A stretch of DNA of 64,000 nt from an uncultured virus (IMG/VR IMGVR_UViG_3300018878_000121) (Duplodnaviria; Heunggongvirae; Uroviricota; Caudoviricetes). The DNA is taken from positions 1-64,000 of IMG/VR virus record IMGVR_UViG_3300018878_000121; one strand, given 5' to 3'. Below, piece by piece: positions 1-59,252 of this stretch (position 1 is the first letter of the stretch; each line of letters starts with the position of its first letter). The notes beneath the pieces are model-generated. The model saw nothing but the letters and a program-made list of their open reading frames with translations. It made no database searches and was not told the DNA's origin. A program made the translations under genes and the position numbers.

Positions 1-196
1 CAGAAAAAAATAAAAAATGTGTAATAAAAATTTTTTCTACTTTTCTTACTCTGTAGTCGCTGTTACTTCAAATAAGTCTCGCACTACACTAAACCCGCCT
101 ACCATCAGAAAAGCCTTTTATTACACATTTCCCAATTTATTTACTTGTATTTTCTTGAAACTATTAAGATTTTTTTTAATAATAGCTCAGAATTTT

Positions 197-283
197 TGGT
201 GCGCCGAGTTGGACTTGAACCAACGAAGCCAAAACTGGCGGCGGGTTTACAGCCCGCAGCAATTGCCACTATGCGACCGACGC
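197..283 (-). tRNA. tRNA-Tyr(GTA)
   Basis: Cloverleaf; anticodon arm GCGGG-CTGTAAA-CCCGC, long variable arm, GTTCAAG T-loop, encoded CCA. Confidence 0.93.
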
Positions 284-339
284 ATATAAGATAATAGTTT
301 AGGGTTAAAGTCACGGCGAACTCTATCAAACATTGACTC

Positions 340-462
340 TGGTGGGGACTGAAGGATTCAAACCTTCAAACACGTGCTCCTAATGCAAAAAGAAAAATTG
401 CTGACAAGACTTAAACAAGACTCACTTATAAACGCGGCTATATCAATTTTGCCTAAGTCCCC
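340..462 (-). tRNA. tRNA-Leu(TAG)-like gene interrupted by a ~45-nt insert carrying the CAGCAA clamp
   Basis: Acceptor GGGGACT/AGTCCCC-ACCA, Leu-type D arm, T arm GAAGG/CCTTC; removing ~387-431 gives anticodon arm CGTGC-ATTAGGA-GCACG. Confidence 0.7.
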
Positions 463-562
463 ATAATAAAGTTTTTTATACTAGACTTTAAACTAGTCAG
501 TTTTAAAGAAAAACTATAACTTTATTGATAATTATACATACTCTACCCAGCGAATTACCAAA

Positions 563-637
563 TGGCTGCGGTGGTAGGATTCGGACCTACGAATGGAGGC
601 TTCAAAGACCTCAGTCTTACCACTTGACGACACCGCA
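563..637 (-). tRNA. tRNA-Gln(TTG)
   Basis: TGCGGTG/CACCGCA acceptor, G73, CCA; anticodon loop CTTTGAA. Confidence 0.93.
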
Positions 638-650
638 TTATTTAATTTAT

Positions 651-726
651 TGGTGGAGCTGATGGGAATTGAACCCATGACCTATAGCTTGCAAAGCTAT
701 TGCTCTCCCAACTGAGCTACAGCCCC
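651..726 (-). tRNA. tRNA-Ala(TGC)
   Basis: GGGGCTG/CAGCTCC-ACCA with G3:U70; loop TTTGCAA. Confidence 0.96.
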
Positions 727-731
727 ATATC

Positions 732-847
732 AAGACACATTTTTTTATATTGCTTCACCCATTAAGCTATTTATCAAATTAAGTGGCTGATAAAATCGGA
801 CTTGAACCGATACTACATATAATATGTATAATTGCTGAATGTGTCTT
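732..847 (-). ncRNA. Circularly permuted tRNA-like gene inside CAGCAA clamp (anticodon possibly CAT)
   Basis: Order on minus strand: AAGACACATT-CAGCAA, T arm ATCGG-TTCAAGT-CCGAT, TTTATCA-G-CCA, linker, TGATAAA, D arm, AATGTGTCTT. Confidence 0.75.
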
Positions 848-858
848 TATTTAAATTA

Positions 859-1068
859 TTAAATTTCTATATACGCAATCGCGCAATCACAATTACTTAC
901 ATACTCACGAATTTGTTCTGCTGGGTCTTCTGGGTCCAGCCCTTCCCAACATTTCTCTCTGCCTCTAAGATATTTACACAATGCCTCTGATGGATTATCA
1001 GCTACAATTTTTTGAATATCAAGAAGATAATCAAAAAAATCAATAAAACTAACTACATAAGTTTTCAT
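859..1068 (-). CDS. hypothetical protein
   Basis: ORF downstream of a TTGA..TATAAT promoter and purine-rich RBS. Confidence 0.6.
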   Translation of the reverse strand: MKTYVVSFIDFFDYLLDIQKIVADNPSEALCKYLRGREKCWEGLDPEDPAEQIREYVSNCDCAIAYIEI

Positions 1069-1147
1069 AAATCATAATCTCTCTTTCTTTATTTTCTATA
1101 TATATTATATCATATTTTTTTATAAAAATCAAATTAAGATTTTTAAC

Positions 1148-1274
1148 TAGACATTTTTAAAGAAAACATTTTCCAGATGTTCGCGTATACCAATACCGCC
1201 TGAAGCCCTACTTTTGACGGGCTACTTGGGATTTGAACCCAAATCTTCTAAGAAGAAATTGCTGTAAATATCTA
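1148..1274 (-). ncRNA. Circularly permuted tRNA-Ser(GGA) inside CAGCAA clamp, break in variable arm
   Basis: T arm TTGGG-TTCAAAT-CCCAA, GTAGCCC-G, linker, GGGCTTC, D arm, intact anticodon arm AACAT-CTGGAAA-ATGTT; clamp TAGATATTT/AAATGTCTA. Confidence 0.78.
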
Positions 1275-1319
1275 TAAGAAATAAACTTAATCAATTATAT
1301 AAGAAAGGAGTAATGAACC

Positions 1320-1482
1320 TAGACTTCAAAAAACTATAACGATTATGCCAGTAAATAACCTCGTTTGTTTTTCATTATATAATTATTTACTATAGGCTTA
1401 CATTTCTCTATTAAATTAAAAGAAAAATACCAGTATAAGAATTTAAAATTCTGTATCTTGTTTATATTGCTGAAGAAGTCTA
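1320..1482 (-). ncRNA. CAGCAA clamp element with non-tRNA cargo
   Basis: TAGACTTC-TTCAGCAA ... GAAGTCTA. Confidence 0.5.
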
Positions 1483-1485
1483 AAA

Positions 1486-1561
1486 TGGTCGGAGTGACAG
1501 GATTTGAACCTGCGGCATCTTGGTCCCAAACCAAGCGCTCTACCAACTGAGCCACACCCCG
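1486..1561 (-). tRNA. tRNA-Pro(TGG)
   Basis: CGGGGTG/CACTCCG-ACCA; loop TTTGGGA. Confidence 0.95.
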
Positions 1562-1679
1562 ATAAACGCAGGCTTAACGGGCTTTTTTGCGCAAACGCAT
1601 TATCCTTCCTGCTAACGTGGGTGAATTTTTATTTCTTTCACCTTAGAAAGAGAGTTTATTCTTAGCTACTCACAAACTT

Positions 1680-1756
1680 TGGTAGTCCAGCTGAGATTCG
1701 GACTCAGGACCTCCCGATTATCGGTCGGGTGCGCTAGCCAACTGCGCCACTGAACT
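1680..1756 (-). tRNA. tRNA-Ile(GAT)
   Basis: Cloverleaf; arm CCCGA-CCGATAA-TCGGG (C33), ACCA end. Confidence 0.88.
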
Positions 1757-1759
1757 AAA

Positions 1760-1834
1760 TGGCGGTCCTGCGGAGAATTGAACTCCGGTTACCAATGTGA
1801 CAGACTGGTGTAATAACCACTATACGACAAGACC
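1760..1834 (-). tRNA. tRNA-Asp(GTC)
   Basis: Loop CTGTCAC, G73, CCA. Confidence 0.93.
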
Positions 1835-1840
1835 ATTTAC

Positions 1841-1915
1841 AAGACGGAATTTTAATAGCTACTTTAATTCCCAAAATTAATGCTTCTAAAAAAATAAATT
1901 TGCTGAATCCGTCTT
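1841..1915 (-). ncRNA. CAGCAA clamp enclosing an isolated anticodon-arm-like hairpin (TGG)
   Basis: AAGACGGA-TTCAGCAA ... TTAAT-TTTGGGA-ATTAA ... TCCGTCTT; directly downstream of a promoter. Confidence 0.6.
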
Positions 1916-1959
1916 TTTTATTTTCTATATATATATTATATCATATTTTTTTTAAAATG

Positions 1960-2820
1960 TCAAATTGTAGTTATAAAAGCTTGATAACCTTTTGCTTTCA
2001 AATCATTTACAACTTTTCCAGCGTTATTCTTTATAGAATAAGCCCCAACTTGAATTTTATAATATCCATTAATTTTTCTAATGTATGCTCTTCCATAACC
2101 AGCATTTATTGTGTCTGGTAAAGAAATGATTTTTTCTAAAAATGCTTCTGCCAAATGTTTCTTTGAAAAAGCACCAAGTTGAACACGATAAATTGTTTTT
2201 GGTTTTAAATAGATTGCGACCACATTATCAACAGCTCTATTATACCAAGCTGATGTAATTGATTTACCATCGTGTAGAATCTTGGTACTACCTCCACCAT
2301 CAAGGTTGATAGCATAAGTTACCCCCAATTGTAATAAAAATGATTGAAGTTGAGCAAAATTCATTCCAGGAGACTCTACAGCTATAACATACACATTATC
2401 ATGATTATATGCTAAAACAGTACGTCTTGCTTTATAATTAATTTCAGCTCCGGCAGTAATTGAAACCTTTTTTCCATTTTCAATCAATACTGGATAAGCA
2501 CTAATAAAATCTGTAAAAGGTAATTTACCTAAAGTTCCATAAGTAAGAGAACCATTTACAATTCCCATACCTTCATTAAATTCTGAATTTGTACTAATTA
2601 TTTCACCATCATCTTGATAATTAAAACAAGTAGTTCCATCAGCCATAGAAAAAAATCCACCATTACAAATAATCGCAGGTTTTACTTCACAAGCATCATA
2701 ATACTTGCTTAAAGTTTGCCAAGGCTGGGCGCACAAATCCATATCAATTGTTTGAATTTCATCTTTTGGAATTTCAACAACTGTGATATACTTAAAATTG
2801 CTTGGATTATAAATTTTCAT
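1960..2820 (-). CDS. Phosphodiester glycosidase (NAGPA-like) with C-terminal SPOR peptidoglycan-binding domain
   Basis: NGGFF, RT, and AINLDGGGST motifs; C-terminal YRVQLGAFS...YKIQVGAYS repeats. Confidence 0.85.
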   Translation of the reverse strand: MKIYNPSNFKYITVVEIPKDEIQTIDMDLCAQPWQTLSKYYDACEVKPAIICNGGFFSMADGTTCFNYQDDGEIISTNSEFNEGMGIVNGSLTYGTLGKLPFTDFISAYPVLIENGKKVSITAGAEINYKARRTVLAYNHDNVYVIAVESPGMNFAQLQSFLLQLGVTYAINLDGGGSTKILHDGKSITSAWYNRAVDNVVAIYLKPKTIYRVQLGAFSKKHLAEAFLEKIISLPDTINAGYGRAYIRKINGYYKIQVGAYSIKNNAGKVVNDLKAKGYQAFITTI

Positions 2821-2875
2821 TTTAATAACACCTTTCTTTAAAATATTTTTTCATAAATTAAAGAAAATTATTTAA

Positions 2876-2920
2876 AGATGACTGTTGGATTTGAACCAAC
2901 ATAAAAACTCCTTTGTCACC
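2876..2920 (-). ncRNA. tRNA minihelix-like remnant (acceptor + T arm only)
   Basis: GGTGAC/GTCATC stem and GTTGG-TTCAAAT-CCAAC; no D or anticodon arm. Confidence 0.45.
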
Positions 2921-2932
2921 ATATAAAAAGAT

Positions 2933-3160
2933 TTAAGCAAATCTTTTAGCAAAATTTAAAAAACTCTTAGGGTCTGCGCCATCAGATACTACAAGATTAA
3001 CTTTATGTCCAATCAATGTAAATAAAGCAAGCAAACTTCTCGCATCTACAATCGTAGAATCTGCGCTGACTTTAATATCATAATTTTGTTTAATAGCAGC
3101 TTCATTTAAATCCTTAGCTAATGAAACTGTCATTATTGAAATAGGATAAACCATTTTCAT
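2933..3160 (-). CDS. HPr-family phosphocarrier-like protein lacking His15
   Basis: 75 aa; VDARSLLALFTL resembles the HPr Ser46 signature. Confidence 0.7.
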   Translation of the reverse strand: MKMVYPISIMTVSLAKDLNEAAIKQNYDIKVSADSTIVDARSLLALFTLIGHKVNLVVSDGADPKSFLNFAKRFA

Positions 3161-3185
3161 CTTCCTTTCTCTAATTAATAATTAC

Positions 3186-3279
3186 AAGACTCTAATTCAA
3201 TAATTCAAAAATACCACACAGGAGGAAACCTACGCAACACAATTCAGAATAAAAATTTATAAATTGCTGTTTGAGTCTT
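3186..3279 (-). ncRNA. CAGCAA clamp element with hairpin cargo
   Basis: AAGACTC-AAACAGCAA ... GAGTCTT. Confidence 0.55.
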
Positions 3280-3281
3280 TT

Positions 3282-3357
3282 TGGTTCTCCCAACAGGAGT
3301 TGAACCTGTATCTCGCCCTTATAAGGAGCTTCCTCTAACCATTGAGCATATGGGAGA
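3282..3357 (-). tRNA. tRNA-Ile(TAT)
   Basis: TCTCCCA/TGGGAGA-ACCA; GCTC-CTTATAA-GGGC. Confidence 0.82.
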
Positions 3358-3507
3358 ATATTTGGGGTAGTTTTTACTGTAGCCTGCGGTTTCACTACCA
3401 AACCCAACTGAAACTCCACTATTCACCGCCCCATTAATGGGGTCTACCCGGCTCTAATAGCTTCAACGTTACGATAACACTCATAGTTGTTATCTTTTAG
3501 CGATCGC

Positions 3508-3585
3508 TGGGGTATCCTATGAGATTTGAACTCATGATTTCTTGAACCACAATCAAGCGTCTTAACCAACTAGACCAAGGACACC
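3508..3585 (-). tRNA. tRNA-His(GTG)
   Basis: G-1:C73, loop TTGTGGT, CCA. Confidence 0.94.
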
Positions 3586-3607
3586 ATAAGGGGAAATTAA
3601 TCCCCAA

Positions 3608-4753
3608 TTAAACCGCTTTAAAAGTTTTATTTTCATAAGTATCGCAACGATTTAAAATTATATATTCAAACTCTCTTTTACTATCTTTTTCTTTTTCTCG
3701 TTTAGCAACTTCTTTATCCATTCCCCAATAGTCATCATCATCAACACAAGGACGGATATGACTACCATCAATGCGCAAGCCACCATTTTTTTCATGAGTA
3801 AAATCACTGATATCAATTTCTATATCAATATATCTCTTATTTTTAAATGAAGAGGTATCTGCTAAACCTCTACAATAAATAACAGATTTTTCAGCAAGTA
3901 AATCAATAGAATAATGATAACCGCAAAATACTTCTCCAGTAGTAGAATAGGCAACAATATCATAATATACATTACCATCTCTACGAATATTTAAAAACTG
4001 TAAGGCATCATTAAAAGTTTCACCTTGATTAAGTTCAAACGCAATAGCACGAAGCAAATCATAGGTTACATTAGAAATATTAGAAAATCTAATTACATCA
4101 TCAATATAATGATGATATTCTGCCGCAAGCTTATCAGTAAGATATTCTCTAATTTCATCTGCTTCTGGAGCATTAACTGTAAAATGATAATGAAATCTAC
4201 CCGGCCTGTTAAGAAGATATGAACTAAGAGAATTTACATTATTACAAGTAATTACAAATAATTTCTTACCATTATTCATGCCATCAAATAAAGAAAGCAT
4301 TGCTTCTTGCGGATTAAAATTATCATCTCTACTTGCGCTTTGAAAATTCTTTTCAAATTCATCAAAAATAATTACGACTTCCTGCTCAATCGCCGCAAGG
4401 AATCCTTCAATACCAGGGATATAATCATTTACAAGAATTACAGGATATCCGCATTTTTGCGCTTTTTCAGCCAAAAGTCTAGCAAATAAGGATTTACCTA
4501 CACCTTTTTGACCACTCAGAATAAGACCAAGATTGCGGTTAAAACTTGAAAAAGAAGCAAGAACTTTACAAACTTTCTGGTCATGAGAACCATAAATCTT
4601 TTCTTCATTAGGGATAAGATTAGGTCTCTTGGAAAGAAAGAAACCAGTTTCTTTAGAAAAAGAAACATTATAAGATAAAGCCGGAAGATTTGTATAAGTT
4701 TTTACATCTTCACCATAAATTTGATAATTATTACCAAAATTTACTACATTCAT
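3608..4753 (-). CDS. AAA+ family ATPase
   Basis: Walker A GQKGVGKS, Walker B IIFDEFEK, sensor TCN, arginine finger NRPGRF. Confidence 0.92.
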   Translation of the reverse strand: MNVVNFGNNYQIYGEDVKTYTNLPALSYNVSFSKETGFFLSKRPNLIPNEEKIYGSHDQKVCKVLASFSSFNRNLGLILSGQKGVGKSLFARLLAEKAQKCGYPVILVNDYIPGIEGFLAAIEQEVVIIFDEFEKNFQSASRDDNFNPQEAMLSLFDGMNNGKKLFVITCNNVNSLSSYLLNRPGRFHYHFTVNAPEADEIREYLTDKLAAEYHHYIDDVIRFSNISNVTYDLLRAIAFELNQGETFNDALQFLNIRRDGNVYYDIVAYSTTGEVFCGYHYSIDLLAEKSVIYCRGLADTSSFKNKRYIDIEIDISDFTHEKNGGLRIDGSHIRPCVDDDDYWGMDKEVAKREKEKDSKREFEYIILNRCDTYENKTFKAV

Positions 4754-4909
4754 TTGTTTTACCTCTTCATAATAATTAAAAAGTTATCACTCTTTAAGAC
4801 TCTCTGATAACTGAACTACGAGATGTTTACTTGTTATATTACTTGTGCACTTTCATATAATTCGTCTGATTATACACCAGCTATATTAAACTTTCTCACA
4901 CTTGGTGTC

Positions 4910-4998
4910 TGGCGGAGGGGGTGGGATTTGAACCCACGGGAGGTTGCCCTCCGACGGTTTAGTAGACCGTTGCTTTCAGCCAGCTCAGCCACCCCTCC
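4910..4998 (-). tRNA. tRNA-Ser(ACT)
   Basis: GGAGGGG/CCCCTCC-G-CCA, long variable arm, arm ACGGT-CTACTAA-ACCGT. Confidence 0.9.
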
Positions 4999-5191
4999 AT
5001 ATAAAATATAAGAAGCTAAAGAGTAAAAAACGAATTTCTTTATCCACCTTAAAGAAATTTGGATGTAAAAACTCTCCTTAGCCGAAATAGTTTTTGTTTC
5101 CATACATTTAAATATATGGAAAAGGTAGTTCCCCGCAGCCAAATTCACCATATATCATATAAATTTGGATCCCTGTTTGCGGTTCTTTAAA

Positions 5192-5264
5192 TGGGCCCGG
5201 TCGGACGATTTGAACGTCGTCTTCGCCTTATGAGGGCGATAAGCTACCATTGCTCCACCACCGG
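5192..5264 (-). tRNA. tRNA with CAT anticodon (Met or Ile2), imperfect acceptor/T stems
   Basis: TCGCC-CTCATAA-GGCGA; GTTCAAAT loop; CCA. Confidence 0.75.
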
Positions 5265-5358
5265 AATATAATGGGCTTTAACCTTTCAGCCCTGTAGGAC
5301 ACATTGGCTTTTGTTTTCTTTTCTTGGCGGTACCTAATTTGTTTTATCATCCGCCCAC

Positions 5359-5434
5359 TGGCTCCCGGTGCTGGGCTTGAACCAGCGACATCATGATTAA
5401 CAGTCATGCGCTCTACCAACTGAGCTAACCGGGA
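5359..5434 (-). tRNA. tRNA-Asn(GTT)
   Basis: TCCCGGT/ACCGGGA-G-CCA; loop CTGTTAA. Confidence 0.96.
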
Positions 5435-5442
5435 ATATAAAC

Positions 5443-5552
5443 AAGACACATTAATCGCAAAATATTGGACTTGAACCAATTACTTTCAGAGTATCAGTCT
5501 GACGCTCTACCAAATGAGCTAATCTCGCTATGAGGTTTGCTGAATGTGTCTT
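5443..5552 (-). tRNA. tRNA-Ile(GAT)-like body (5456-5528, no CCA) enclosed by CAGCAA clamp
   Basis: AAGACACATT-CAGCAA, complete cloverleaf with TCAGA-CTGATAC-TCTGA, AATGTGTCTT. Confidence 0.78.
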
Positions 5553-5560
5553 TAAAATTT

Positions 5561-5794
5561 TTACATTACTACTCTTTGAACAAAAGGCTTTTTTGATATT
5601 TTACTAAACCTAGTTTTTTGATAAGAAGTTGTTATTGTATATAACCTTTCTGGTTTTATATTTCCAAATCTTCTAATAATATAAGCACCTTGTTTCATAT
5701 GTGAAGTTTTATGATCTATTTGAAATTTTGCCCATTGCAAAATTTCTAAACCATTAAACTGAGTTCCAGGCACATAACTTAAAATATTTCGCAT
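5561..5794 (-). CDS. hypothetical protein
   Basis: ORF with GAAGG RBS. Confidence 0.55.
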   Translation of the reverse strand: MRNILSYVPGTQFNGLEILQWAKFQIDHKTSHMKQGAYIIRRFGNIKPERLYTITTSYQKTRFSKISKKPFVQRVVM

Positions 5795-5819
5795 ATATAC
5801 CTTCTATTATAATTTTTAA

Positions 5820-5892
5820 TGGTTGCGGAGGGTGGTGTTGATCCACCGGAGTCCAGTTTATGAGACTGGATTGAAGACCGCTTCTCCCCGCC
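5820..5892 (-). tRNA. Atypical tRNA-Met(CAT), initiator-like 1:72 mismatch
   Basis: CCAGT-CTCATAA-ACTGG; G1:A72 mismatch; reduced D arm; T-loop ATCAACA; ACCA. Confidence 0.7.
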
Positions 5893-5976
5893 AGAAAGAG
5901 AGAGCCTTTTTCAGACTTGCTCAGGTCTTGAAAGAAAGTAAAACAATGAATTTATGAAAGTTGCGAATTCATCGCG

Positions 5977-6053
5977 TGGTAGTCCCGGCGGGACTTGAAC
6001 CCGCATTGTCGGCTTGAAGGGCCGGTGTTACTGACCTGTTAGACGACGAGACC
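5977..6053 (-). tRNA. tRNA-Glu(TTC)
   Basis: Loop CCTTCAA; GGTCTCG/CGGGACT-ACCA. Confidence 0.85.
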
Positions 6054-6057
6054 AAAT

Positions 6058-6207
6058 TTATTCATCAAAATTTTTATATTTTGATTTTCGTTTATAAGAA
6101 CCTTTACCTTTGCGCGCAGGAACTATATGATGCTGCCGCATTGTTTGTAAATATTCTTGTAACTCTTCTGGATTCTTCTTAAAAATACGCTTATTAATTT
6201 TCTTCAT
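6058..6207 (-). CDS. Small basic protein with ArfA-like KGKGSYxRK motif
   Basis: 49 aa from ATG at 6207 (GAGAGG RBS); RQHHIVPARKGKGSYKRKSKY. Confidence 0.6.
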   Translation of the reverse strand: MKKINKRIFKKNPEELQEYLQTMRQHHIVPARKGKGSYKRKSKYKNFDE

Positions 6208-6367
6208 TTTCAACCTCTCGTTTCCACATTTCAATAAGAACTTCATACATTTCATCGGACTGAATCTGGACAGAAAAATCATTAAACATATTTTATTTTC
6301 CTCTTTTCTTATTTTCTATAAATATTATAACATATTTTTTTAAAAATGTCAAGAAAAATTTTTTAAT

Positions 6368-6442
6368 TGGTTTCAATGATGGGATTTGAACCCATGACTC
6401 TCAAATTAAAAGTTTGATACTCTTCCACTGAGTTACATTGAA
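6368..6442 (-). tRNA. tRNA-Lys(TTT)
   Basis: TCAAA-CTTTTAA-TTTGA; ACCA. Confidence 0.92.
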
Positions 6443-6507
6443 TTATTTCTTTTTGATTTTCTATATATATTATATCATATTTTTTATAAAAAATCAAATT
6501 AAGATTT

Positions 6508-6753
6508 CTAAATTAAATGTTCATCTTTTTCAATCATATTAAACCATTCTTCTTTGACATGAACAAATGGTCCTTCAAAAAGCTGAATCTCTGCTTTAAC
6601 CAAATCATTTCCATAATATTCTTCAATTTGGAACATAGCGTCTTTAAAATCTTTAATATTTGTAAGAACAATGTAATCTACATTCTCTTCATTATCAATA
6701 GAATTATACCAGCTTATTTTACCAAGAGCGAAAAATTCATTCATAAATTTCAC
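6508..6753 (-). CDS. hypothetical protein
   Basis: Acidic ORF with AAAAGGTG RBS; ends in TAG followed two codons later by TAA. Confidence 0.6.
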   Translation of the reverse strand: MKFMNEFFALGKISWYNSIDNEENVDYIVLTNIKDFKDAMFQIEEYYGNDLVKAEIQLFEGPFVHVKEEWFNMIEKDEHLI

Positions 6754-6769
6754 CTTTTCAATAAATTAC

Positions 6770-6871
6770 AAAACACATTTTTTTGATATGGGACTTGAAC
6801 CCATGTTCTCACTGTTGCTGAGTGATGTCTTAACCGCTTGACAAATCATTTTATATTGCTGTATGCGTTTT
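6770..6871 (-). ncRNA. tRNA-like body (loop CAGCAAC, nominal GCA) with truncated acceptor inside CAGCAA clamp
   Basis: AAAACGCAT-ACAGCAA, D arm GTC..GAC, TCACT-CAGCAAC-AGTGA, T arm ATGGG/CCCAT, ATGTGTTTT. Confidence 0.68.
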
Positions 6872-6873
6872 TA

Positions 6874-6958
6874 TGGTGCTCGGAATGGGACTTGAACCCA
6901 TACGCCTTGCGGCAGGAGTTTTTGAGACTCCCATGTCTGCCGATTCCATCATCTGAGC
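6874..6958 (-). tRNA. tRNA-Leu(CAA)
   Basis: GGAGT-CTCAAAA-ACTCC, long variable arm, ACCA. Confidence 0.94.
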
Positions 6959-7434
6959 ATGAGCGTTTGATTTTTAGGAAAACAAAGGGCAACAAACCGC
7001 AACTTATATATAGTAATTAAATATGAAAGTTTGCGAACATATTTAATAAATCGCACTTTGGGTCAGCGCTAACCCACGCGGCATCACGTATTACTTTTAT
7101 ATAATCACGCTCTTATCAAAAGTAACAAAAATTTTAAGCAAGTTCCAGTGAATTCGCCCTTCCTTTGAGCTTGGTGCCGCCACATCCATGTCCTCAGATG
7201 CTGAATTTTCTTGGTTTATTCAGAAACCATACAATTTTTGTCACCGTTAAAAATTGCCAAAAAACGGAAGTATTTTTTTCCCTCTTTGTAAAAGATACTT
7301 AAAAAAATCAGTCTATCACATTTCTGGGGGTTGATGGTTTAATTTAATTATAACTTTTAATAAATTAAATTCTATAACTCTTATACAACTTAACCCAACC
7401 TTAACCGTGATAAATTTTAAGGATTTTAATTTAA

Positions 7435-7510
7435 ATGCTGGACACAGGATTTGAACCTATACCACTCTGTTCCTTGAGAGGATGCTAACCAATTACACCA
7501 GTCACAGCAT
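7435..7510 (-). pseudogene. Degenerate tRNA-like sequence (8-nt anticodon loop, bulged acceptor, no CCA)
   Basis: D arm GGTGT-AATTGGTTA-GCATC, CTCT-CAAGGAAC-AGAG, T arm ATAGG-TTCAAAT-CCTGT. Confidence 0.6.
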
Positions 7511-8041
7511 ATGAAATAATCTTTTTTAATTTTCTATATATATTATAACATATATTTTTTAAAAAATCAAATAAAGAACTTTATAAGTACATTGCTTCAG
7601 AATCAAACACGAGATTTTCTTCTTTACATGGAGATAACTTACTTCTTTTTTATTTAATTAGCCGTAAGCTCGCTTAAACCTTCCCCGTTTACTTGCAGCA
7701 TCAACAAGCACTAATTAAATTAAGAGTGTAAAACTACTCTAATAAGAAATATTATCTTGGTTTTTCATCCGCAGAGAGGGAAACCTTGCAAAACCCTTGC
7801 GCGCAATCGGCTTTTATCCGGCACACCCAGCCCTAAACAGCCACAAAACGTCTGGGGTAAAAATCAACTTAGTTTTCTCTAAACTATTTGGCTATTACCA
7901 TCCTGCTGTAAAGTATTGATTTTAATTTATGTTTCGCAAGATTCACAACTGCGAAAAGGGTAATTCTTTCTCTTCGGACGCTACCCTGTAATGCCCAGCA
8001 CGGCAGTTTAATGACTCCATCCGCTGTCATTAAATTTTTTT

Positions 8042-8326
8042 TTATTCACGTTCAATAGAAGTAATACCAAAAATTAATTTAAAAGCTTTATACGCATAAT
8101 CATATTTACTAGCATAGATTTCATCAACAGCTTCTTCTGCCGCACATTCATCTTCTGCTTGCGCTTCAATCTCTTGAATTTCTTCTTCTATATTAGGATA
8201 AAGTTCAAAAAATAAAATATCACTAAAATCATCACTATTAATTGTTCTTTCCAATACTTTAATAAAAGCATTTCTCCATTTTTCTAAAGAAATTCCACCA
8301 ACAATTACATTAGTATTATTTGTCAT
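8042..8326 (-). CDS. hypothetical acidic protein
   Basis: Own promoter and AAGGA RBS. Confidence 0.7.
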   Translation of the reverse strand: MTNNTNVIVGGISLEKWRNAFIKVLERTINSDDFSDILFFELYPNIEEEIQEIEAQAEDECAAEEAVDEIYASKYDYAYKAFKLIFGITSIERE

Positions 8327-8397
8327 ATTTTATTTCCTTTCTTAATTTTCTATAAATATTATAACATATTTTTTATAAAAAATCAAATTAAGATTTT

Positions 8398-8474
8398 TGG
8401 TACAGGTGAAGGGACTTGAACCCTTACATTTTAGTTCCTAAGACTAACGCCTATGCCAATTCGGCTACACCTGC
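8398..8474 (-). tRNA. tRNA-Leu(TAG) with short variable loop
   Basis: TTAGT-CTTAGGA-ACTAA, Leu-type D arm, 5-nt variable loop, ACCA. Confidence 0.88.
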
Positions 8475-8865
8475 TTAAATGGTGGAGAAAGATGGATATC
8501 ACACCCGTGTGCTTAACCTCTCCACTGTTGGCATATATCACACTAGCCTTAAGGTCGGCTAACCACTTATTTGTTGATTACTGGAATTTTTGTTTTTCCA
8601 ATTAGACAGTTTTCTGATAGTGATGGGACCCCTGACAAAACCCATTTCCTGCCTTCCTTATGGAACGCCACGTCCGGAGTAGGACCTTGTAGCGAAACTG
8701 CTACACACGCTTGAGGGCGTTGGTGATGGTTATTGTTGTATGGGCTTACCATCATATCCCAGTTGATGCTTCTAACCACTACGCACCGGAACCGTCGGTT
8801 GTCTTTCCAACTGTCTAGCTTTTTTGATAGCACTAAGTCTATCTTACTCCTTCGCTAAGGGAGAT

Positions 8866-8948
8866 TGGTGCCGAATGACAGAATTGAACTGCCTCCTCCC
8901 GCAACGCATTCAGCGGGCCTGCAAGTGCTACCATTACACCAATACGGC
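8866..8948 (-). ncRNA. Aberrant tRNA-like RNA (extra 7-nt D/anticodon connector, 10-nt loop)
   Basis: GCCGTAT/ATTCGGC-ACCA, normal D and T arms, CCCGC-TGAATGCGTT-GCGGG. Confidence 0.65.
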
Positions 8949-9269
8949 ATACATGAACAAGCAAACGGACAAAATCTTGTTCTGAGAGATTACGCACTCT
9001 CTTTTAGCAAGGCTTTATGTACACTATCCTTTACTTTAACTTCCTCTTTTAGCGTTTTATAATAAGGCTGTTCATCTCACTCCATTTACTACAGCTGCTG
9101 TGGCTTTCAACCATATGGTCCTTCATTAAGTCCCTCCCGCATCCCTAATAACAAGCTGTATTGGTTCACTTAATGGCTTCGTAGCACCTTATTTATTATT
9201 ATTTTTTACATATATATTATATCATATTTTTTTATAAAAATCAAATTAAAATTTTTTATTTAATTTTAC

Positions 9270-9409
9270 AAGACGATTTAATATTTTCTTTTACCTGCTC
9301 TACCAACTGAGCTATTTCTATCTGCTAAGATAGAAAGTGGGACTTGAACCCACGACCCGGGTGTTGTCAGCACATAAAAATAATTAAAATAAATTGCTGT
9401 AATCGTCTT
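9270..9409 (-). ncRNA. Circularly permuted tRNA (anticodon GAC, Val) inside CAGCAA clamp
   Basis: AAGACGATT-ACAGCAA, GTG-CTGACAA-CACCC, T arm GTGGG/CCCAC, TTTCTAT, linker, ATAGAAA, D arm GCTC-AGTTGGTA-GAGC, AATCGTCTT. Confidence 0.78.
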
Positions 9410-9598
9410 TCTTATTTTCTATAAATATTATATCATATTTTTTTATTATTTTCAAATAATAATTTTTAATCAAAATAAAAGAAATGTATTATTAATCAAA
9501 AAAGTTTTAAATTTCTTAAAAACTCTTGTCCTAAAAATTTTTATTTTTTTATCTTTTTTGATTTTCTATATATATTATATCATATTTTTTTATAAAAA

Positions 9599-10474
9599 TC
9601 AAATTAAGATTTTATTATTTAATTCATTCATTTTTTGACGAATTTCATCCTAATATTCAGGTTTTACTAAATAATATAATAATATTTCTAATAAATTTTC
9701 TTCTGATGTTAATCTACCTTCAATTTTAAAATGTTTAAATCCCATAGGTATATAAATATTTTTTATAAAATCTCTACTTATAAATAAAGGATTATTTTTA
9801 GTATATTCAAAAATACGACAAGTAGCATTTTTACATTTAAAAGGTTTAATAGATGGATCTAATACTTGTAATGAAATATTTTCATAATGCTATTTGCGAT
9901 ATTGACATCTTGGGATACAAACTGGATTTATTAAAAATTCACATTTGTGTTTATTTGGGAGCTATTTTAAAAAATCAAAATTATTATTATGATTATAATC
10001 TAAAACTACAATGTCATAATTTTTATTTAATTCATTTAACTAATCTTCTTCATTATTTAAACATTTAGTTGTAGATGATATAATTTTATAATTGGGAAAA
10101 TTTTTTCTAATATAAATTTCTAATATATTAGAAGCAAGAACTATACTATTATTTTCATTATTAAATTTTTGCAATAATGAATTACAATACGTGTCTGATA
10201 AATGCTTTTCTTCTAATAAAGAATTAGAAAATATTAAACTACAAGAAATATTATTAATTTTTAAAAATTTTAATATAAAATCTTCTGAAATAGCCGTCTA
10301 ATTGTACTAATATCTTCCACCATTCCATAACGCATTTAATGGAGCTCCATATATAGAACTTATTTCAAAATCTGAATAAAATTTTTCTGAATTATTTTTT
10401 AGTATTTGAATAAAATTCTAATAAAAATAAAATTTTTCAAATAATCCGGGTAAATGAAATTGAATTTTATTCAT
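9599..10474 (-). CDS. hypothetical protein, possibly peptidase U32-like fold (TAG read-through)
   Basis: Long frame MNKIQFHLPGLF...SIYG...WNGGR interrupted by TAG; 3' end approximate. Confidence 0.55.
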
Positions 10475-11618
10475 TATTTATCTCCCTTATATTTTCAAAC
10501 TATGTTTTATAATAATTATGAGAAAATAATTTAATCATTGATTTAATATCATAATATTGTGTTGTTGATGGAAGCTCTAAAAAAGAATTAAATAAATTTT
10601 TATATTCTTTTAAATAAAAACTATTATTTAGATCATTTTTAATAGTATTATTTTTAATTAAAACAATATTATTATCTATTAATTTAAAATTATTTTTAAT
10701 TAATTCAATAAATTCTAAAATTATTATATCTCTATCGTTACGCAATAATGAAGAAGAAATTTTTAAATTAAAATTGTAATACTTTAAAATTCCATAAATC
10801 ATAATTAATATAAACTAAAAAGTTAAATTAAAATTATTTTTTATTATTTGCTCTGAATCAAATAAAATATCAAACAATAAAAAATAAATTTTTATAATTA
10901 TATCATTATTATTTAAACAACAATCTTTTATTTCATCTAAATAATAGAATAAACAGCTTAACCATATCATCTAATCTTTTATAGTAATAAGTTTTTGCTA
11001 ATAAAAATATTCCATCCATATACAATTACTTCTAGTAAAATTTGAATTAGTTCTATAAATTCGTTGATAAAACTAATAATTTTTACAAATATAATTTGAG
11101 CTCAAAAACATTGTTATAGTTTTAAAAACAGAATCTTCACATCCATCTGTCATATAAGTAGGAAAATTTAAATTATATCTTTTTAAAAAAGAATTATTAT
11201 AAACAATACCTTGTAAAGTATCACAAGGTTCTTTTGAAGATTCTATAATATTATCAGAAGAATTTTTCTATGTAATAATAAAATCATATTTATTATCAAG
11301 CAAACACAATATATCATTAATAATTATATCATCATCATCAATAAAGGTTGTAAAATCATCTTGATTATTTTTCAATAATTTTAATGCCATATTACGAGCA
11401 TTACCAGGCCCAGAATTTTTTTCTGTTTTTAAATATAAACAATTAAAATATTGCTTATATTTTTCAATTAAATAAAGATATTCTGTTGAATATTTAGAGC
11501 AATCATCAACAACATAAACAATAATTTCTGATAAATTTGAAATATTTAATTTAATTGACTATAAACATTTTTCTAAATATTGATGATGATTAAAACAAGG
11601 AATAATAATATTTAACAT
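10467..11618 (-). CDS. Glycosyltransferase family 2 (TAG read-through)
   Basis: MLNIIIPCFN, VVDDCS, NSGPGNARN, FIDDDD motifs. Confidence 0.85.
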
Positions 11619-33947: not shown

Positions 33948-34091
33948 GGTATCAATCCTTTCAGCGTAGGTCGCTACCCATTATTTTTATTTTACCGATT
34001 GGAGGTCGTGCCCTCTTGCTTCGGTATATATATTATATCATACTTTGAGCGATTTGTCAAGGGGTTTTGCAAAAGTTTTTGAAAAATTTTT

Positions 34092-34198
34092 TGGAGGCAG
34101 TGGTAGGAGTTGAACCTACGTTTTCCAATGGCGAACGTTTCCATTTGTTGTATCTCAAGCCATCTTTATGGAAATAGAGCCGCTTCTATCTCACTGCC
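34092..34198 (-). ncRNA. Stand-alone tRNA-like RNA with ~41-nt expanded anticodon region
   Basis: GGCAGTG/CACTGCC-T-CCA, T arm GTAGG-TTCAACT-CCTAC, TTCCA/TGGAA stem; own promoter at 34229-34266. Confidence 0.72.
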
Positions 34199-44479: not shown

Positions 44480-44507
44480 ATAAGTATAAAATAACTGGAG
44501 GTAAAAA

Positions 44508-45566
44508 ATGGTTAAATTAGATTATTCTTTACAAACTCCAGAAGAAAGAGTTAAATTAGTAGAATAGATTTTAGCCGAGGACCCAAACCCCAGTGAAAAA
44601 TATTCAGAAGTATTGGCTGACTATTTAATTCTTTGTATGGAGAAACAAGAAAGAAAAGAAAAGAAAATTCTTACTGAAAACCGAATGGCGACAGTAAATA
44701 AAAGAGAAACTTCTTATGAAGGTCTTGTTTCCCAATTAGAAAATGGCGAAGATGGTATATATAATTTAATGTCAGATAATAAATAGTAGATTTTTCAACC
44801 AAAAGTAACAATAACAAAAAAAGATTTAGAAGAGATTCCTGATTTGCGCCAATTGCGCGACGCCATAGAAATCTGGGAGGCAAAACTAAAAACCGCCGAA
44901 GGAAAAGATGCTTTTACTATTAAAAAAGCTTTAATTGAATTGCGGAAAGACCAATATATTATTAAAAATGCGTTCAGATGCCCTGTTGAATTAAATAAGA
45001 TTACTCGCTCAAAATCTTATATTAAATTAGATGATACAACTTGCGAATTTGATGATGATGGATATCCTATTCCTTCTGGAATTTCATTAATGAATCCTGA
45101 AGTTGTTTCAGCAATTTTATGTAATTATTCAAAATTAAAGCAAGATAGTTGGGATTATTTTGAAGGAGATACTTGGTATCTTATGAATGATTTTGACCAT
45201 TTGAGTAATGTGGCTTTAAAAGAATATCCATTATATGAACGATTAGTTGATTTAAAAATTGATGGACTTTAGAATGCGGATATCCAAATAAAATTAGAAG
45301 AAGAATTTGGAATTAAACATAGTCTAGAATATATATCTAGTTTATGGCGTAATAAAATTCCTAAATTAATTGCGTCAACTGCGGAAGATGAATTTTTAGA
45401 TTGGTATTATTTAGAAGTTGAAAAAGGAAAATATAAAAAATGTAGTAGATGCGGACAGATTAAATTAGCTCATAATAAATATTTTAGCAAGAATAAAACA
45501 AGCCGAGATGGCTTTTACAGTATTTGTAAATGCTGCCGGAATGCTAAAACAAAGAAAGGAGAATAA
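44508..45566 (+). CDS. HTH + Zn-finger protein, possible transcription regulator (TAG read-through)
   Basis: Single frame with TAG interruptions; C-terminal CSRC...CKCC. Confidence 0.7.
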
Positions 45567-45569
45567 TTT

Positions 45570-46763
45570 ATGCCTGACCATTATTATTGTGAAAAATGTA
45601 ATAGAACATTAGCAGCTGAAGAATTTTATACTTCAAATAATTTAGAAAAATATCCTAATGATGGTAAGTTAAATCAATGTAAAAAATGTATTACAATGCA
45701 TGTAGATAATTGGAATCCAGACACTTATCTATGGATTTTACAAGAAGTTGATGTCCCATATGTTCCAGAAGAATGGGATAAACTTATGACATCATATATT
45801 AAAGACAATAAAAAAATTACAGGTATGACTATTTTAGGTAGATATCTATCTAAAATGAAATTAAAACAATTTAGAGAATATCGTTGGAAAGACAACGAAT
45901 TTATACAAAATTTAAAAAATAAAAAAATTGAAGAAACAATGAAACGTTAGGGATATAGTGCGGTTGAAATAGCAGAAGCTATTAATAAATCAACCTTTAC
46001 TATGCCTGTGGAAGAATTGCGCGAACCAGAACCTAAAGCAATTGGCTCTCAAGTGGAAGAAGAACCTGAAGATTATTTTGCTAAATAGTCTGGTGCTGAT
46101 GACTCTTTCTTTGATGATGATTTAACAGAAGAAGATAGAACATATTTAAGATTAAAATGGGGAAAAGCATATAAACCAGAAGAATGGATTAAACTAGAAC
46201 AACTTTATAATGAAATGATGGAATCTTATGATATCCAAACCGCAGGTCATATTGATACTTTAAAATTAATTTGTAAAACCTCATTAAAAGCAAATCAATT
46301 AATTGATATTGGTGATGTAGAAGGATTCCAAAAAATGAGTAAAGTTTATGATAACTTAATGAAGAGTGGTAGATTTACTGCGGCCTAGAATAAAGCAGAA
46401 TCTGGTGAGTTTGTTGACTCTATTGCTGAACTAGTTGAAATATGTGAAAAAGAAGGTTTTATTCCTAGATTTTATACAGATACACCAATGGATAAAGTTG
46501 ATGAAACTTTAGCTGATTTAAAAGGATATACACGCACATTAGTCACTGAAGAAATGAATTTAGGTAATTTAATTGAAAGTGCTGTTAAAGAAATGGCTAA
46601 GCAAGAAGCAAAAGAAGAAGATGAAGATGTTGAAGATGAACTTGATTTAGATGAAATTGAATAGTTAAAAGATGAAGATTTTGAAGATTATAATCAATTT
46701 TTAGATGAAGATATAGAAGCTGACGCGGATTTCTTAAAGCAATTAACTAATGAGGGTAATTAA
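45570..46763 (+). CDS. Zn-finger protein, candidate terminase small subunit (TAG read-through)
   Basis: CEKC...CKKC N-terminus, acidic tail, directly upstream of TerL. Confidence 0.6.
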
Positions 46764-46765
46764 TT

Positions 46766-48508
46766 ATGGCTTTATAGGATTTATTAAATTTATCTGAACA
46801 AAGAAAAAAAATTGGTTTATCTGAAGAAAGAGTAAATGCTATTATTCCAATAGTGCGTCAATACATTGCCTTTTGGAGAGAATATCCTGATATGTTTGTG
46901 GATTTTCTAGTTAGAGGTAATAGAACTGAAATAAAAGATGGCGAATTTAAATTTTATTTTTATTAGCGAGTATTTTTGCGTGCGGCAATGCGACATCAGT
47001 ATCTGTACGCAGTATTTCCTCGCGCCTATTCAAAATCATTCTTATCAGTAATGGTGTTAATGTGTAAATGTATTTTGTATCCTCGTTGCAAATTGTTTGT
47101 TACTTCTGGAGGTAAGGAACAAGCTGCTGGTATCATTAAAGAAAAAGTTCAAGAAATTTGTACTCTTATTCCTGCGTTTAAAAATGAAATAGACTGGACA
47201 AGAGGTAAAACTCTTGAAGGAAAAGATTATTGTAAATATGTTTTTACAAATGGTTCATATTTTGATAATATCGCAGCGAGAGAAAGCTCTCGTGGTAAAC
47301 GTCGTCATGGTGGTTTAATTGAGGAATGTGTTGGTGTTGATGGTACTATTCTTTCTGAAGTAATTATTCCTACAATGAACGTTTCTCGTATGTGTATGGA
47401 TGGTTCAACGCATCCAGAAGAATAGTTAAATAAGTCATAGATTTATGTAACTACAGCTGGATGGAAAAATACATTCCCTTATGATAAGCTCATTCAATTA
47501 CTAGTATGGCAAATTGTTAAACCAGAAAAATCTATGATACTTGGTGGTACATATCGTATTCCAGTATTAGTTAAATTACTTGATAAAAACTTTATCCGTG
47601 ATTTAAAAATGGATGGTACATTTAATGAGATGTCTTTTGACCGTGAATATGAAAGTAAATGGTCTGGTTCGGTTGAAGATGCTTTCTTTAATTCAGAAGT
47701 TTTTGATAGAAATAGAATTTTAAAATAGCCTGAATATGAAGCATCAGGGCGCTCAAGCAAATCTAGTTTTTATATATTATCTGCGGATGTTGGTCGTAAA
47801 GGTTGTGATACTGTAGTATGCGTATTTAAGGTAACACCATAGCCGCAAGGCTCTTCCATAAAAACTTTAGTAAATTTATTTACTTTATCAGATGCGCATT
47901 TTGAAGATTAGGCTATTAAATTAAAAAGATTATTTTATAAATTTAATGCTCGTAGATTAATAATTGATGCTAATGGTATGGGTATTGGTTTATTAGATTA
48001 TTTAGTAAAGCCTCAAATTGACCCAGATACTGGCGATACTTTCCCTGATTTTGGTGTTTATAATGATGAAGAAGGATATTATAAAAAATATAGAACAGTA
48101 AATTGCGAACAAGATGCTGTTTATCAAATAAAAGCAAATGCTCCTATAAATACTGAAGCTCATGCTAATGCGCGTTCTCAATTATCTTCTGGAAAAGTTA
48201 AAATGCTTATAGATGAACGTGTGGCAAAAGTTAAATTAATGGGAACAAAATTAGGTTAGAATATGAAGCCTGAAGAAAGGGCAGAATATTTAAAACCATT
48301 TACTTTAACTTCCATATTAAGAGAGGAATTAATGAACCTTCGTGAAGAAAATGAAGGTGTTAATATTATACTTAAATAGGTAAACCGAGGGGTTAGAAAA
48401 GATAAATTTTCTGCCTTTGAATATGGTCTATATTATATTAAACAAGAAGAAGATAATAAAAAGAAGAAAAAGAAATTTAATGCTAAAGAGTGGATGTTTT
48501 TAAGTTAA
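46766..48508 (+). CDS. terL: Terminase large subunit (TAG read-through)
   Basis: PRAYSKS Walker A variant, RGKRR..LIEE Walker B, ADVGR and KDKFSA nuclease motifs; at least 8 in-frame TAG. Confidence 0.9.
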
Positions 48509-48520
48509 GGGGGGAGATAA

Positions 48521-48877
48521 TTGCGGGCATCTCGTGGTGAAATCAAAATAGAAGAAATTTTGACAGAAGCAGAATTACATTTTAAAATGGAATATATTTT
48601 TCCAGATTTAAAAAGTCCAAATGGTCGTCCTTTGAGATTTGATTTTGTTGTTTTTGATGATGATGGAAATATTGATTTTATTATTGAATATTAGGGAAAA
48701 TAGCATTATGAAGCTAGTCAAAAATTTGGTGGTAAAAAAGGTCTTTATCAACAACAATATAATGATAATCAAAAAAGAAGATTTTGTGCTTTACATGATT
48801 TTAAATTAATTGAAATCCCTTATACAGATGAACATCTTATTACTTATGATTATTTAATGCATTTAGCAGGATATTAA
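48521..48877 (+). CDS. Vsr/DUF559-like PD-(D/E)XK endonuclease (TAG read-through)
   Basis: SRGE..I...LRFDF...IEY*GK*HY..D..KR.FC...LIEIPY. Confidence 0.8.
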
Positions 48878-48894
48878 GTAAAGGAGGTGGAATT

Positions 48895-50508: not shown

Positions 50509-50519
50509 GGAGGATAATA

Positions 50520-52151: not shown

Positions 52152-52180
52152 TAATAAAAATTTAAAGGAGGACATATATA

Positions 52181-52998: not shown

Positions 52999-53015
52999 GA
53001 AAGGAGTGAAGAATA

Positions 53016-54131: not shown

Positions 54132-54167
54132 TTAATAATTTAAAATTAAATATATATAAATAAACAT

Positions 54168-54205
54168 GGGGGAGAATGGGGATGTTCCCCTTCTCCCTTA
54201 TATTT
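54168..54205 (+). terminator. Intrinsic terminator-like hairpin after capsid gene
   Basis: gggagaatgggga-tgt-tccccttctccc followed by T-rich tract. Confidence 0.65.
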
Positions 54206-54233
54206 ATTAATGGAGATAAAGGAGATAAATAAA

Positions 54234-54797: not shown

Positions 54798-54819
54798 TTA
54801 ATAGATAGGAGGCGAAGAG

Positions 54820-59247: not shown

Positions 59248-59252
59248 TTTAA

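Follow-up and report, generated by a model that had tools for sequence, protein, structure and literature searches.

The first 64,000 nucleotides of the uncultured virus record IMGVR_UViG_3300018878_000121 (Duplodnaviria; Heunggongvirae; Uroviricota; Caudoviricetes), hereafter the window, contain on the minus strand at 9409->9270 a transfer RNA (tRNA)-shaped unit, U1, with the tRNA body's 3′ half lying upstream of its 5′ half. We favour, with slightly better than even confidence, the reading that U1 is a stable, handle-bearing tRNA-mimic RNA of YrlA-like design that belongs to a modular family of phage small RNAs. U1 is not a lone oddity but one of a repeated and widespread family. We report here its sequence anatomy and promoter match, the covariation of its helices, and the family and its spread.

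Anatomy of the permuted unit

Read directly from the minus strand, U1 is composed of a 5′ arm, the motif ACAGCAAU, a leader, an anticodon-type hairpin, a variable loop, a T arm, a closed acceptor, a D arm, A-GG, a trailer and a 3′ arm, in this order (Table 1). A preliminary description of the locus, made from the letters alone, had proposed a circularly permuted tRNA (3′ half, linker, 5′ half) with a GAC anticodon-type loop and a C discriminator, directly behind a promoter. Direct reading bore out each of these points; the two acceptor strands pair at 7/7 positions and the discriminator is the C at 9329. The outer coordinates of that description, 9270 and 9409, correspond to the two arms of a 9-bp terminal helix that it had left undescribed. 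Together with the adjoining single-stranded motif, this helix forms what we call the handle (AAGACGAUU-ACAGCAAU ... AAUCGUCUUG).

The point at which both ends of U1 exit the tRNA body lies in the anticodon stem, on its 5′ strand, between tRNA positions 28 and 29. CC pairs with GG at 9295-9294, and GG+GTG thus stand opposite CACCC in a split anticodon stem, as had been described. The anticodon-type loop reads C32, U33, GAC, A37 and A38; to our knowledge U33 is near-universal in tRNAs. The positions of the tRNA tertiary pairs are also present (U8, A14, G18G19, G15-C48, T54 and C56). Joined at 28|29, the halves would read ...GAGCAGG + GTGCTGAC..., and ARAGORN called the rejoined sequence as tRNA-Val(gac) of 73 nt. 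U1 as it stands gave no tRNA with ARAGORN default settings or with Rfam at the gathering threshold. A split anticodon stem of 2+3 bp with a 7-nt loop also arose in 21% of shuffled U1 leaders, so this detail by itself is weak evidence. The 140-nt U1 RNA has a predicted fold of -36.9 kcal/mol (z = -3.77), a stability reached by 0/200 shuffles, and the predicted fold retains the terminal helix, the T arm and the acceptor hairpin.

The acceptor stem is closed by an 8-nt loop and encodes no CCA, with C-UUA where N73-CCA would be expected. It starts with A1 (A1-U72) and has 1 G/C of 7, compared with a mean of 4.8 G/C in the 17 canonical tRNAs of the same phage, of which 16/17 encode CCA. The predicted promoter ends 18 nt upstream of the terminal helix. 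A near-identical 45-nt promoter block (TTGATTTTTATAAAAAAATATGATATAATATATATAGAAAAT) is repeated on the minus strand across the tRNA region, and its core occurs in at least 144 stretches of viral contigs. U1 is probably the gene of a non-coding RNA of roughly 110-140 nt, transcribed from its own strong predicted promoter; the RNA would fold into a complete tRNA look-alike with a sealed acceptor, its ends paired as the handle.

One handle around different cargoes in the same record

Eight units on the minus strand of 1-9700 have in common a covarying terminal helix, AAGACnnnn/nnnnGUCUUG, with WCAGCAAW directly after the 5′ arm. The outer pairs AAGAC/GUCUU are conserved and the inner pairs covary among the units. 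The first four helices are AAGACGAUU/AAUCGUCUU, AAAACGCAU/AUGUGUUUU and, twice, AAGACACAUU/AAUGUGUCUU; the remaining four are AAGACUC/GAGUCUU, AAGACGGA/UCCGUCUU, UAGACUUC/GAAGUCUA and UAGAUAUUU/AAAUGUCUA. Three units hold a permuted tRNA body, two a tRNA in normal order and three other, non-tRNA hairpins. That one handle surrounds all three kinds of body marks it as a general module rather than a tRNA junction signal. In several cases a tRNA lies upstream and the handle unit begins 0-10 nt after its CCA. A search of 1-9700 with Rfam at E <= 0.05 assigned neither the handle nor the non-tRNA units to a family. An antisense-target role of ACAGCAAU was considered and rejected, as AUUGCUGU is not enriched in the record (7 + 2 sites, four of them the units' own complements).

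The same region contains a normal-order tRNA-shaped gene with CCA at 340-462 (minus strand; GGGGACT...AGTCCCC-A-CCA; Rfam tRNA, 32 bits). In this gene, 343-462, a 56-nt insert breaks the anticodon stem after CGU, the same stem position at which the U1 ends exit. The insert carries handle motifs, GAGTCTTG and AAGTCTTG-TCAGCAAT (..GUCUUG..UCAGCAAU..), followed by a GC-ATTAGGA-GC hairpin. From its sequence, the 343-462 gene looks like an unpermuted counterpart of U1.

Covariation and spread in related phages

In an alignment of 17 permuted cores from 10 phage records (A2), pairing within the T, acceptor and D helices amounted to 93.4% of cells, compared with 62.1% in shuffles (0/500 of which reached the observed value) and 31-47% when slid. 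Compensatory changes were found in 14/16 pairs, and all 7 acceptor pairs have changed on both sides. The preliminary description had proposed a comparison of homologous loci, and in these relatives the half-to-half complementarity is indeed kept, with compensatory changes. A covariance model built from the A2 core (R1) gave 39 matches of at least 50 bits in 22/70 related records, 14 of the 39 being seed sequences; lower-scoring matches were mostly tandem tRNAs. Among 17 further R1 matches read with their flanks, 12 had the handle and 5 did not (4 tandem tRNAs and 1 unclear).

The 5′ handle pattern AAGRC-N3-6-CAGCAA matched 135 times in 32/70 related records, as against 14 matches for a reversed control. 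The matches lie almost always on one strand per record and are clustered, with 16 in G005 and 11 each in G016 and G060 (G numbers denote related phage records). Across 51 distinct units, which show 26 different inner 4-mers, pairing at the inner handle positions reaches 74.7%, compared with 31-58% when slid. G-U and A-C combinations at these positions number 15 and 6, a bias that favours pairing in the RNA of the minus (unit) strand. Genuine matches of the YrlA model in related phages carry the same handle around the same order of body parts.

A search of 31 further records yielded no U1 ortholog that shares its body. The closest core relative, in G077, is 75% identical over the core and has a different loop, so that the Val loop is not kept; retained are the handle, the GG/CC pairs and the acceptor (7/7 pairs, in different letters). 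Of 567 tRNAs called in the related DNA, none exceeds 71% identity to rejoined U1, and the best matches are Ile and Ala. These results, and the UAC anticodon of all 22 Val genes in the same DNA, disfavour an origin from a phage tRNA-Val.

The junction varies among family members, at 26/27, 28/29, 29/30 or 43/44. Anticodon-type loops kept with a break after nt 28 or 29 are CUUGUAA in G002/G008/G009/G010 and G024, CUGAUUA in G012, CUGCCAA in G042 and CUGUCAC in G005_b. Several other loops (UUAGGGA, UUUGGGA, UUGGGGU) are family motifs near the YrlA consensus and are not anticodons. No anticodon loop is present in U8, G021 and G002_a, the acceptor is degenerate in G024_a, and acceptor loops of only 3-4 nt occur in G021 (ACA) and G012 (AAAT); with such short acceptor loops or missing anticodon loops, many family members cannot yield a tRNA. 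A tblastn comparison of 17 neighbouring open reading frames (ORFs) with the related loci gave no gene that consistently adjoins the units. Brute-force rejoining (25 units, 173,168 junction combinations, ARAGORN) was uninformative, as nearly any AU-rich leader gives some call.

The 402-kb phage G005 carries two paralogous permuted units, L182:2171-2311 (minus strand) and L180:2386-2522 (minus strand), in which the entire anticodon arm follows the D arm, as CTTGT-CTGATAA-ACAAG (GAU) and CTTGT-CTCCAAA-ACAAG (CCA); this places the break at 43/44. Both paralogues also have a 5′ hairpin with the loop TACTAAA or TATTAAA. A further G005 unit, L175:1509-1685 (minus strand), has a structured insert of about 60 nt within the acceptor loop, with CCA directly after the acceptor strand.

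Resemblance to YrlA and other permuted RNAs

U1 aligns to the YrlA model RF02553 over the entire length of the model (positions 1-114) with 34.5 bits and, in a 501-b search, E 7.6e-6. Full-length sub-threshold matches were present in 15/24 related records, the best at 48.2 bits, and the phage relatives share stretches of the YrlA consensus such as GAUUGCUUGGGG and GCGUAUGU by our own reading. Like YrlA, U1 is predicted to be a single transcript with paired ends that form a terminal helix and, between them, a tRNA look-alike with the arms in the same order; U1 has the YrlA layout of T arm, loop-closed acceptor, D arm and paired ends. Wang et al. (2018; 10.1101/312249) describe most YrlA RNAs as resembling circularly permuted tRNAs with closed acceptor stems, and the S. 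Typhimurium YrlA as lacking an anticodon loop. In a search confined to TROVE-encoding genomes, Chen et al. (2014; PMC4201824) report YrlA beside the Ro60 gene in 254 bacteria and 22 phages. They describe a motif bound by Ro60, GNCGAAN0-1G, in the terminal helix, on its 5′ strand, and a Ro60 gene within about 4 kb on the same strand. YrlA thus also occurs in phages, and the Salmonella YrlA adjoins rtcB.

U1 differs from these RNAs in that its terminal helix has a conserved sequence of its own, AAGAC/GUCUU plus ACAGCAAU, in place of GNCGAAN0-1G, and in that it has an anticodon-type hairpin and no Ro60/TROVE gene. The phages studied here carry up to 16 handle units each; these lie within tRNA clusters, and non-tRNA cargo is present in some.

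Permuted tRNA genes of Cyanidioschyzon merolae, green algae and Thermofilum pendens likewise have the 3′ half upstream and an intervening sequence that closes the acceptor (PMC3978253), and their halves, like those of U1, can be joined into a canonical cloverleaf that has an anticodon; within the phage family the junction is found at different positions. This 2014 review lists such genes only from algae and one archaeon, and all depend on a bulge-helix-bulge (BHB) motif cut by the tRNA splicing endonuclease, with a circular intermediate and aminoacylated products demonstrated (PMC3978253). The phage family, known from sequence, differs in having no BHB, no such endonuclease and a bacterial-type promoter, and in that an anticodon loop, or an acceptor loop that could be opened, is missing from many members. 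No BHB was seen on reading the U1 junction: AAAA/UUUU is the sole possible pairing next to it and lacks the 3-4-3 geometry, and 27 nt and 15 nt separate the junction from the conserved helix. The tRNA splicing endonuclease PF01974 was found in 0/5 phage records, with control matches in 4 archaea.

The two-piece transfer-messenger RNA (tmRNA) made from permuted ssrA is a second parallel, a bacterial gene with a permuted tRNA-like domain that works without religation (PMC3978253). U1 differs from it: the Rfam tmRNA match is confined to 18 nt of the T arm (14.5 bits), and there is no tag reading frame and no pseudoknots. A full-text literature search, with subscription journals outside its coverage, returned no report of such a handle or of permuted tRNA genes in phages.

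Evidence against the YrlA-like reading and for a possible tRNA precursor

Two sets of observations weigh against the YrlA-like reading. The first concerns the YrlA comparison itself. The 34.5 bits of U1 are half of the Rfam gathering cut-off of 69 bits, which 0/24 related records exceeded, and some of the weak YrlA-model matches are ordinary tandem tRNAs. The Ro60/TROVE gene has 0 matches in the record, itself 71% complete; among 24 related records, 23 had no match and 1 a weak partial match. The motif GNCGAAN0-1G is not conserved in the handle: U1 has GACGAUU (5/6 positions), and the other seven units have different letters at this site, the conserved parts being AAGAC and CAGCAA. Of five defining YrlA features, three fail in U1, namely the 69-bit score, the GNCGAAN0-1G motif and a nearby Ro60 gene.

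The second set is what makes a true circularly permuted pre-tRNA-Val(GAC), decoding GUY codons, the leading alternative, although we regard it as unlikely. On this route the leader and trailer would be cut at 28|29, RtcB or Rnl of phage or host would seal the stem into a circle, and RNase P and 3′ processing would later open the acceptor loop for CCA addition. Rejoined U1 is a perfect cloverleaf with a canonical anticodon loop, and canonical loops split at 28/29 or 29/30 are kept in several relatives (CUUGUAA, CUGCCAA, CUGUCAC). The break after nt 28 or 29 recurs with different anticodon-type loops in unrelated units (G024_a, G012, G002_c type and G042). N73-CCA is present inside the acceptor loop in seven units by our own reading (U8, G005_c, G005_d, G002_b, G010_b, G005_b and G005_g), which hints that the acceptor loop gets opened. 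The insert of the normal-order tRNA at 343-462, with its handle motifs at the same position, is placed as an excisable element would be. RNA ligases are also common among these phages: RtcB is encoded in 4/25 records, about 1 kb downstream of a Thr-like unit in three of them (G002, G008 and G009), and RNA_ligase is over the cut-off in 16/34 and Rnl1 in 5/34 records. Wang et al. (10.1101/312249) raise the possibility that YrlA-like RNAs are processed to real tRNAs, with the reservation that no bacterial splicing endonuclease is known.

As had been stated for the window in the preliminary description, no conventional tRNA-Val was called by ARAGORN, and none was called in the whole 126,353-b record either, though with the record 71% complete this absence is weak evidence.

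Comparative evidence speaks against a decoding tRNA. The same handle encloses normal-order tRNAs and non-tRNA hairpins. The complete record G002 has an ordinary tRNA-Thr(tgt) at 158913-158988, about 80 nt from a permuted Thr(UGU)-like unit at 159072-159193, and the G015 ortholog of this Thr-like unit has UAU in place of UGU. This redundancy and anticodon drift, together with the loss of the Val loop in G077, the many members without an anticodon loop or with 3-4-nt acceptor loops, and the weak, CCA-less acceptor of U1, disfavour the decoding tRNA-Val implied by the preliminary description, whose account of topology and anatomy stands. The identity elements of valyl-tRNA synthetase are A35, C36 and A73; U1 has C73. 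No RNA ligase was found in the U1 record (71% complete), and only 2/10 handle-positive records that are at least 90% complete have RtcB. The lack of a BHB and of the splicing endonuclease, and the ease with which shuffled leaders form a split stem, also count against the pre-tRNA route.

A broader form of the pre-tRNA proposal, to which we give a slightly smaller and likewise low probability, would make these the first permuted (at 343-462, insert-interrupted) tRNA genes of bacterial viruses. The handle AAGAC/GUCUU plus ACAGCAAU would serve as a novel signal for protein-dependent excision, 28|29 would be sealed by RtcB or Rnl of the phage or the host, and the supply of certain tRNAs would be gated by phage RNA repair in a TAG-recoded phage. 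If the pre-tRNA route were true, a pathway that matures permuted tRNAs would be seen for the first time outside algae and archaea.

Further alternatives

U1 might instead be a two-piece chargeable tRNA-like RNA, in which RNase P cuts the acceptor loop, the 3′ strand is trimmed and receives CCA, and 28|29 is never sealed, the pieces being held together by the acceptor stem and the handle. The precedent is the Mycobacterium smegmatis YrlA, which is cleaved by RNase P and CCA-tailed (PMC4201824). The 7-bp acceptor stem of U1, with an 8-nt loop that RNase P could open, and the N73-CCA in the loop of seven family members resemble it. The mycobacterial RNA differs in being bound by Ro60 and encoded beside rsr (PMC4201824), and U1 itself has C-UUA rather than N73-CCA, an A at position 1 (A1-U72) and an AU-rich stem; in some members the 3-4-nt acceptor loops leave nothing to cut. 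We consider this form quite improbable.

Tandem tRNAs are common in this DNA and also match the YrlA and R1 models, and U1 has no ortholog with the same body in the 31 further records, as might be seen if it were an inert relic, the 3′ half of one tandem tRNA gene and the 5′ half of the next. Such a relic is very improbable in view of the 11/12 promoter of its own, the perfect pairing of every helix, including 7/7 pairs between acceptor strands of two supposedly different genes, the conserved handle and the compensatory changes across the family, and the retention of acceptor pairing in other letters, GG/CC pairs and handle in G077.

The least probable alternative, which we give hardly any weight, is a retron-like or DNA-level cassette, in which the inverted repeat and the conserved G in AGC act either as a1/a2 stem and priming G or as a site at which recombination shuffles cassettes: a terminal helix followed by ..CAGCAA.. 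may resemble a retron msr layout and the same handle, AAGACGATT-ACAGCAA, occurs with different bodies in G000, G002/G008/G010 and G060, but the reverse transcriptase PF00078 is found in 4/25 records, far from the units and not co-distributed with them, and is absent from G000 and from the complete G005 with its 16 handle motifs, the excess of G-U over A-C in the handle points to pairing in RNA, and many units lie 0-10 nt after a tRNA CCA, as parts of tRNA transcripts would.

The host phage and feature coordinates

The window is the first 64 kb of the 126,353-b record, which has a CheckV completeness of 71%, starts within a tRNA region and has 30.4% G+C. ARAGORN called 17 tRNAs on the full record. 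The summed length of stop-to-stop frames that reach 150 aa or more is 17,562 aa with the standard code; with TAG open it is 35,029 aa, and three frames in window 44500-64000 and onward, of 3309, 2075 and 1816 aa, exist only with TAG read through. In the late genes of this phage TAG serves as a sense codon. The 126-kb record yielded no call of a CUA suppressor tRNA; such a tRNA is present at 100693-100768 in the complete related record G002. Pfam searches of 68 + 25 ORFs of the record identified NrdD/NrdG, DnaB, RecJ and a split Pol III alpha, and gave no Ro60, RtcB, RNA ligase or CCA enzyme. The window DNA was found in animal faecal and gut metagenomes, with four runs containing at least half of the sampled words; no RNA run was among those listed. 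A blastn ('distant') search of window 8000-11000 against the phage collection gave no match, and protein-guided relatives of the upstream ORF comprised 2 loci (55% and 35% identity), neither with the handle family in the examined DNA.

The DNA polymerase III alpha is divided over two ORFs with a GIY-YIG/NUMOD3 homing-endonuclease ORF between them (L006:5015-10075, minus strand; record 113015-118075). A 74-aa ORF in the tRNA region, 6058-6282 (minus strand), has a sub-threshold match to ArfA, the alternative ribosome-rescue factor (23.6 bits; cut-off 25.5). Three more tRNA-shaped sequences were missed by ARAGORN defaults, at 7435-7509, 8866-8948 and about 34070-34190, all on the minus strand. 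One of them has an 8-nt anticodon loop ('agga' at a low threshold) and one an over-long anticodon region plus CCA; the third, in mid-genome, reads GGCAGTG...CACTGCC-T-CCA with a long internal insert.

Table 1. Window coordinates of U1 and its parts, of the other handle units and of the promoter block.
Feature	Position	Strand	Remarks
Sigma-70-type promoter of U1, TTGAAA-17 nt-TATAAT, TG upstream of -10 box	9455->9427	-	11/12 matches
Other copies of the promoter block	9602-9574, 9244-9216, 8365-8395, 6470-6500, 1105-1135, others	-	
U1	9409-9270	-	permuted tRNA body
U1, 5′ arm of handle helix, AAGACGATT (RNA AAGACGAUU)	9409-9401	-	9/9 pairs with 9278-9270
U1, single-stranded motif ACAGCAAT (RNA ACAGCAAU) adjoining 5′ arm	9400-9393	-	in 8/8 units of the record
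U1, leader, 19 nt, AU-rich (U-rich)	9392-9374	-	pairs with A-rich trailer in predicted minimum-energy fold
U1, anticodon-arm look-alike GTG-CTGACAA-CAC then CC (tRNA positions 29-43)	9373-9359	-	direct reading and rejoining; GTG 9373-9371, CTGACAA 9370-9364, CAC-CC 9363-9359
U1, variable loop GGGTC (44-48)	9358-9354	-	C48 can pair with G15 (Levitt pair), direct reading
U1, T arm GTGGG-TTCAAGT-CCCAC	9353-9337	-	direct reading; corresponding helix 1 of A2 paired in 98.8% of cells
U1, closed acceptor stem: TTTCTAT (66-72), C (73), linker TTAGCAG, ATAGAAA (1-7)	9336-9315	-	7/7 pairs; TTTCTAT 9336-9330, C 9329, TTAGCAG 9328-9322, ATAGAAA 9321-9315
U1, TA + D arm GCTC-AGTTGGTA-GAGC + A26	9314-9296 (D arm 9312-9297)	-	direct reading; RNA loop AGUUGGUA
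U1, GG (27-28), 3′-side strand of split anticodon stem	9295-9294	-	
U1, A-rich trailer, 15 nt, TAAAAGAAAATATTA	9293-9279	-	
U1, 3′ arm of handle helix, AATCGTCTT (RNA AAUCGUCUU), then G	9278-9270	-	9/9 pairs with 5′ arm
U2	6871-6770	-	encloses Rfam-only tRNA 6784-6848, 36 bits
U3	5552-5443	-	encloses tRNA-Ile(GAU) 5456-5528, the only canonical tRNA in the record without CCA
U4	3279-3186	-	non-tRNA hairpin
U5	1915-1841	-	non-tRNA hairpin
U6	1482-1320	-	non-tRNA hairpin
U7	1274-1148	-	permuted tRNA body
U8	847-732	-	permuted tRNA body; G-CCA kept in acceptor loop; no anticodon loop

Implications

What is new here is a conserved handle common to tRNA-shaped and other cargo, together with anticodon-type hairpins at a recurrent 28/29 exit and the occurrence of the family across dozens of recoded gut-phage records. 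In the YrlA-like reading that we favour, the handle may be a shared maturation, stability or protein-docking module for many small RNAs of these phages. The tRNA-shaped module would be neither charged nor used in decoding; it may instead bind or sequester a tRNA-recognising factor in infection, such as an anticodon nuclease of the host or an enzyme of tRNA modification or RNA repair, so that U1 would act as a decoy or tether for that factor.

If this reading is true, large TAG-recoded gut and rumen phages carry modular small RNAs with one handle and exchangeable cargo, and the cargo includes full tRNA mimics with anticodon-type arms and no Ro60 partner. The Y-RNA/YrlA idea would then extend to a Ro-independent, multi-copy phage system. 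Such a system would point to a protein that binds or cuts the handle, and would mark tRNA mimicry as a weapon in the struggle over cleavage and repair of tRNAs.

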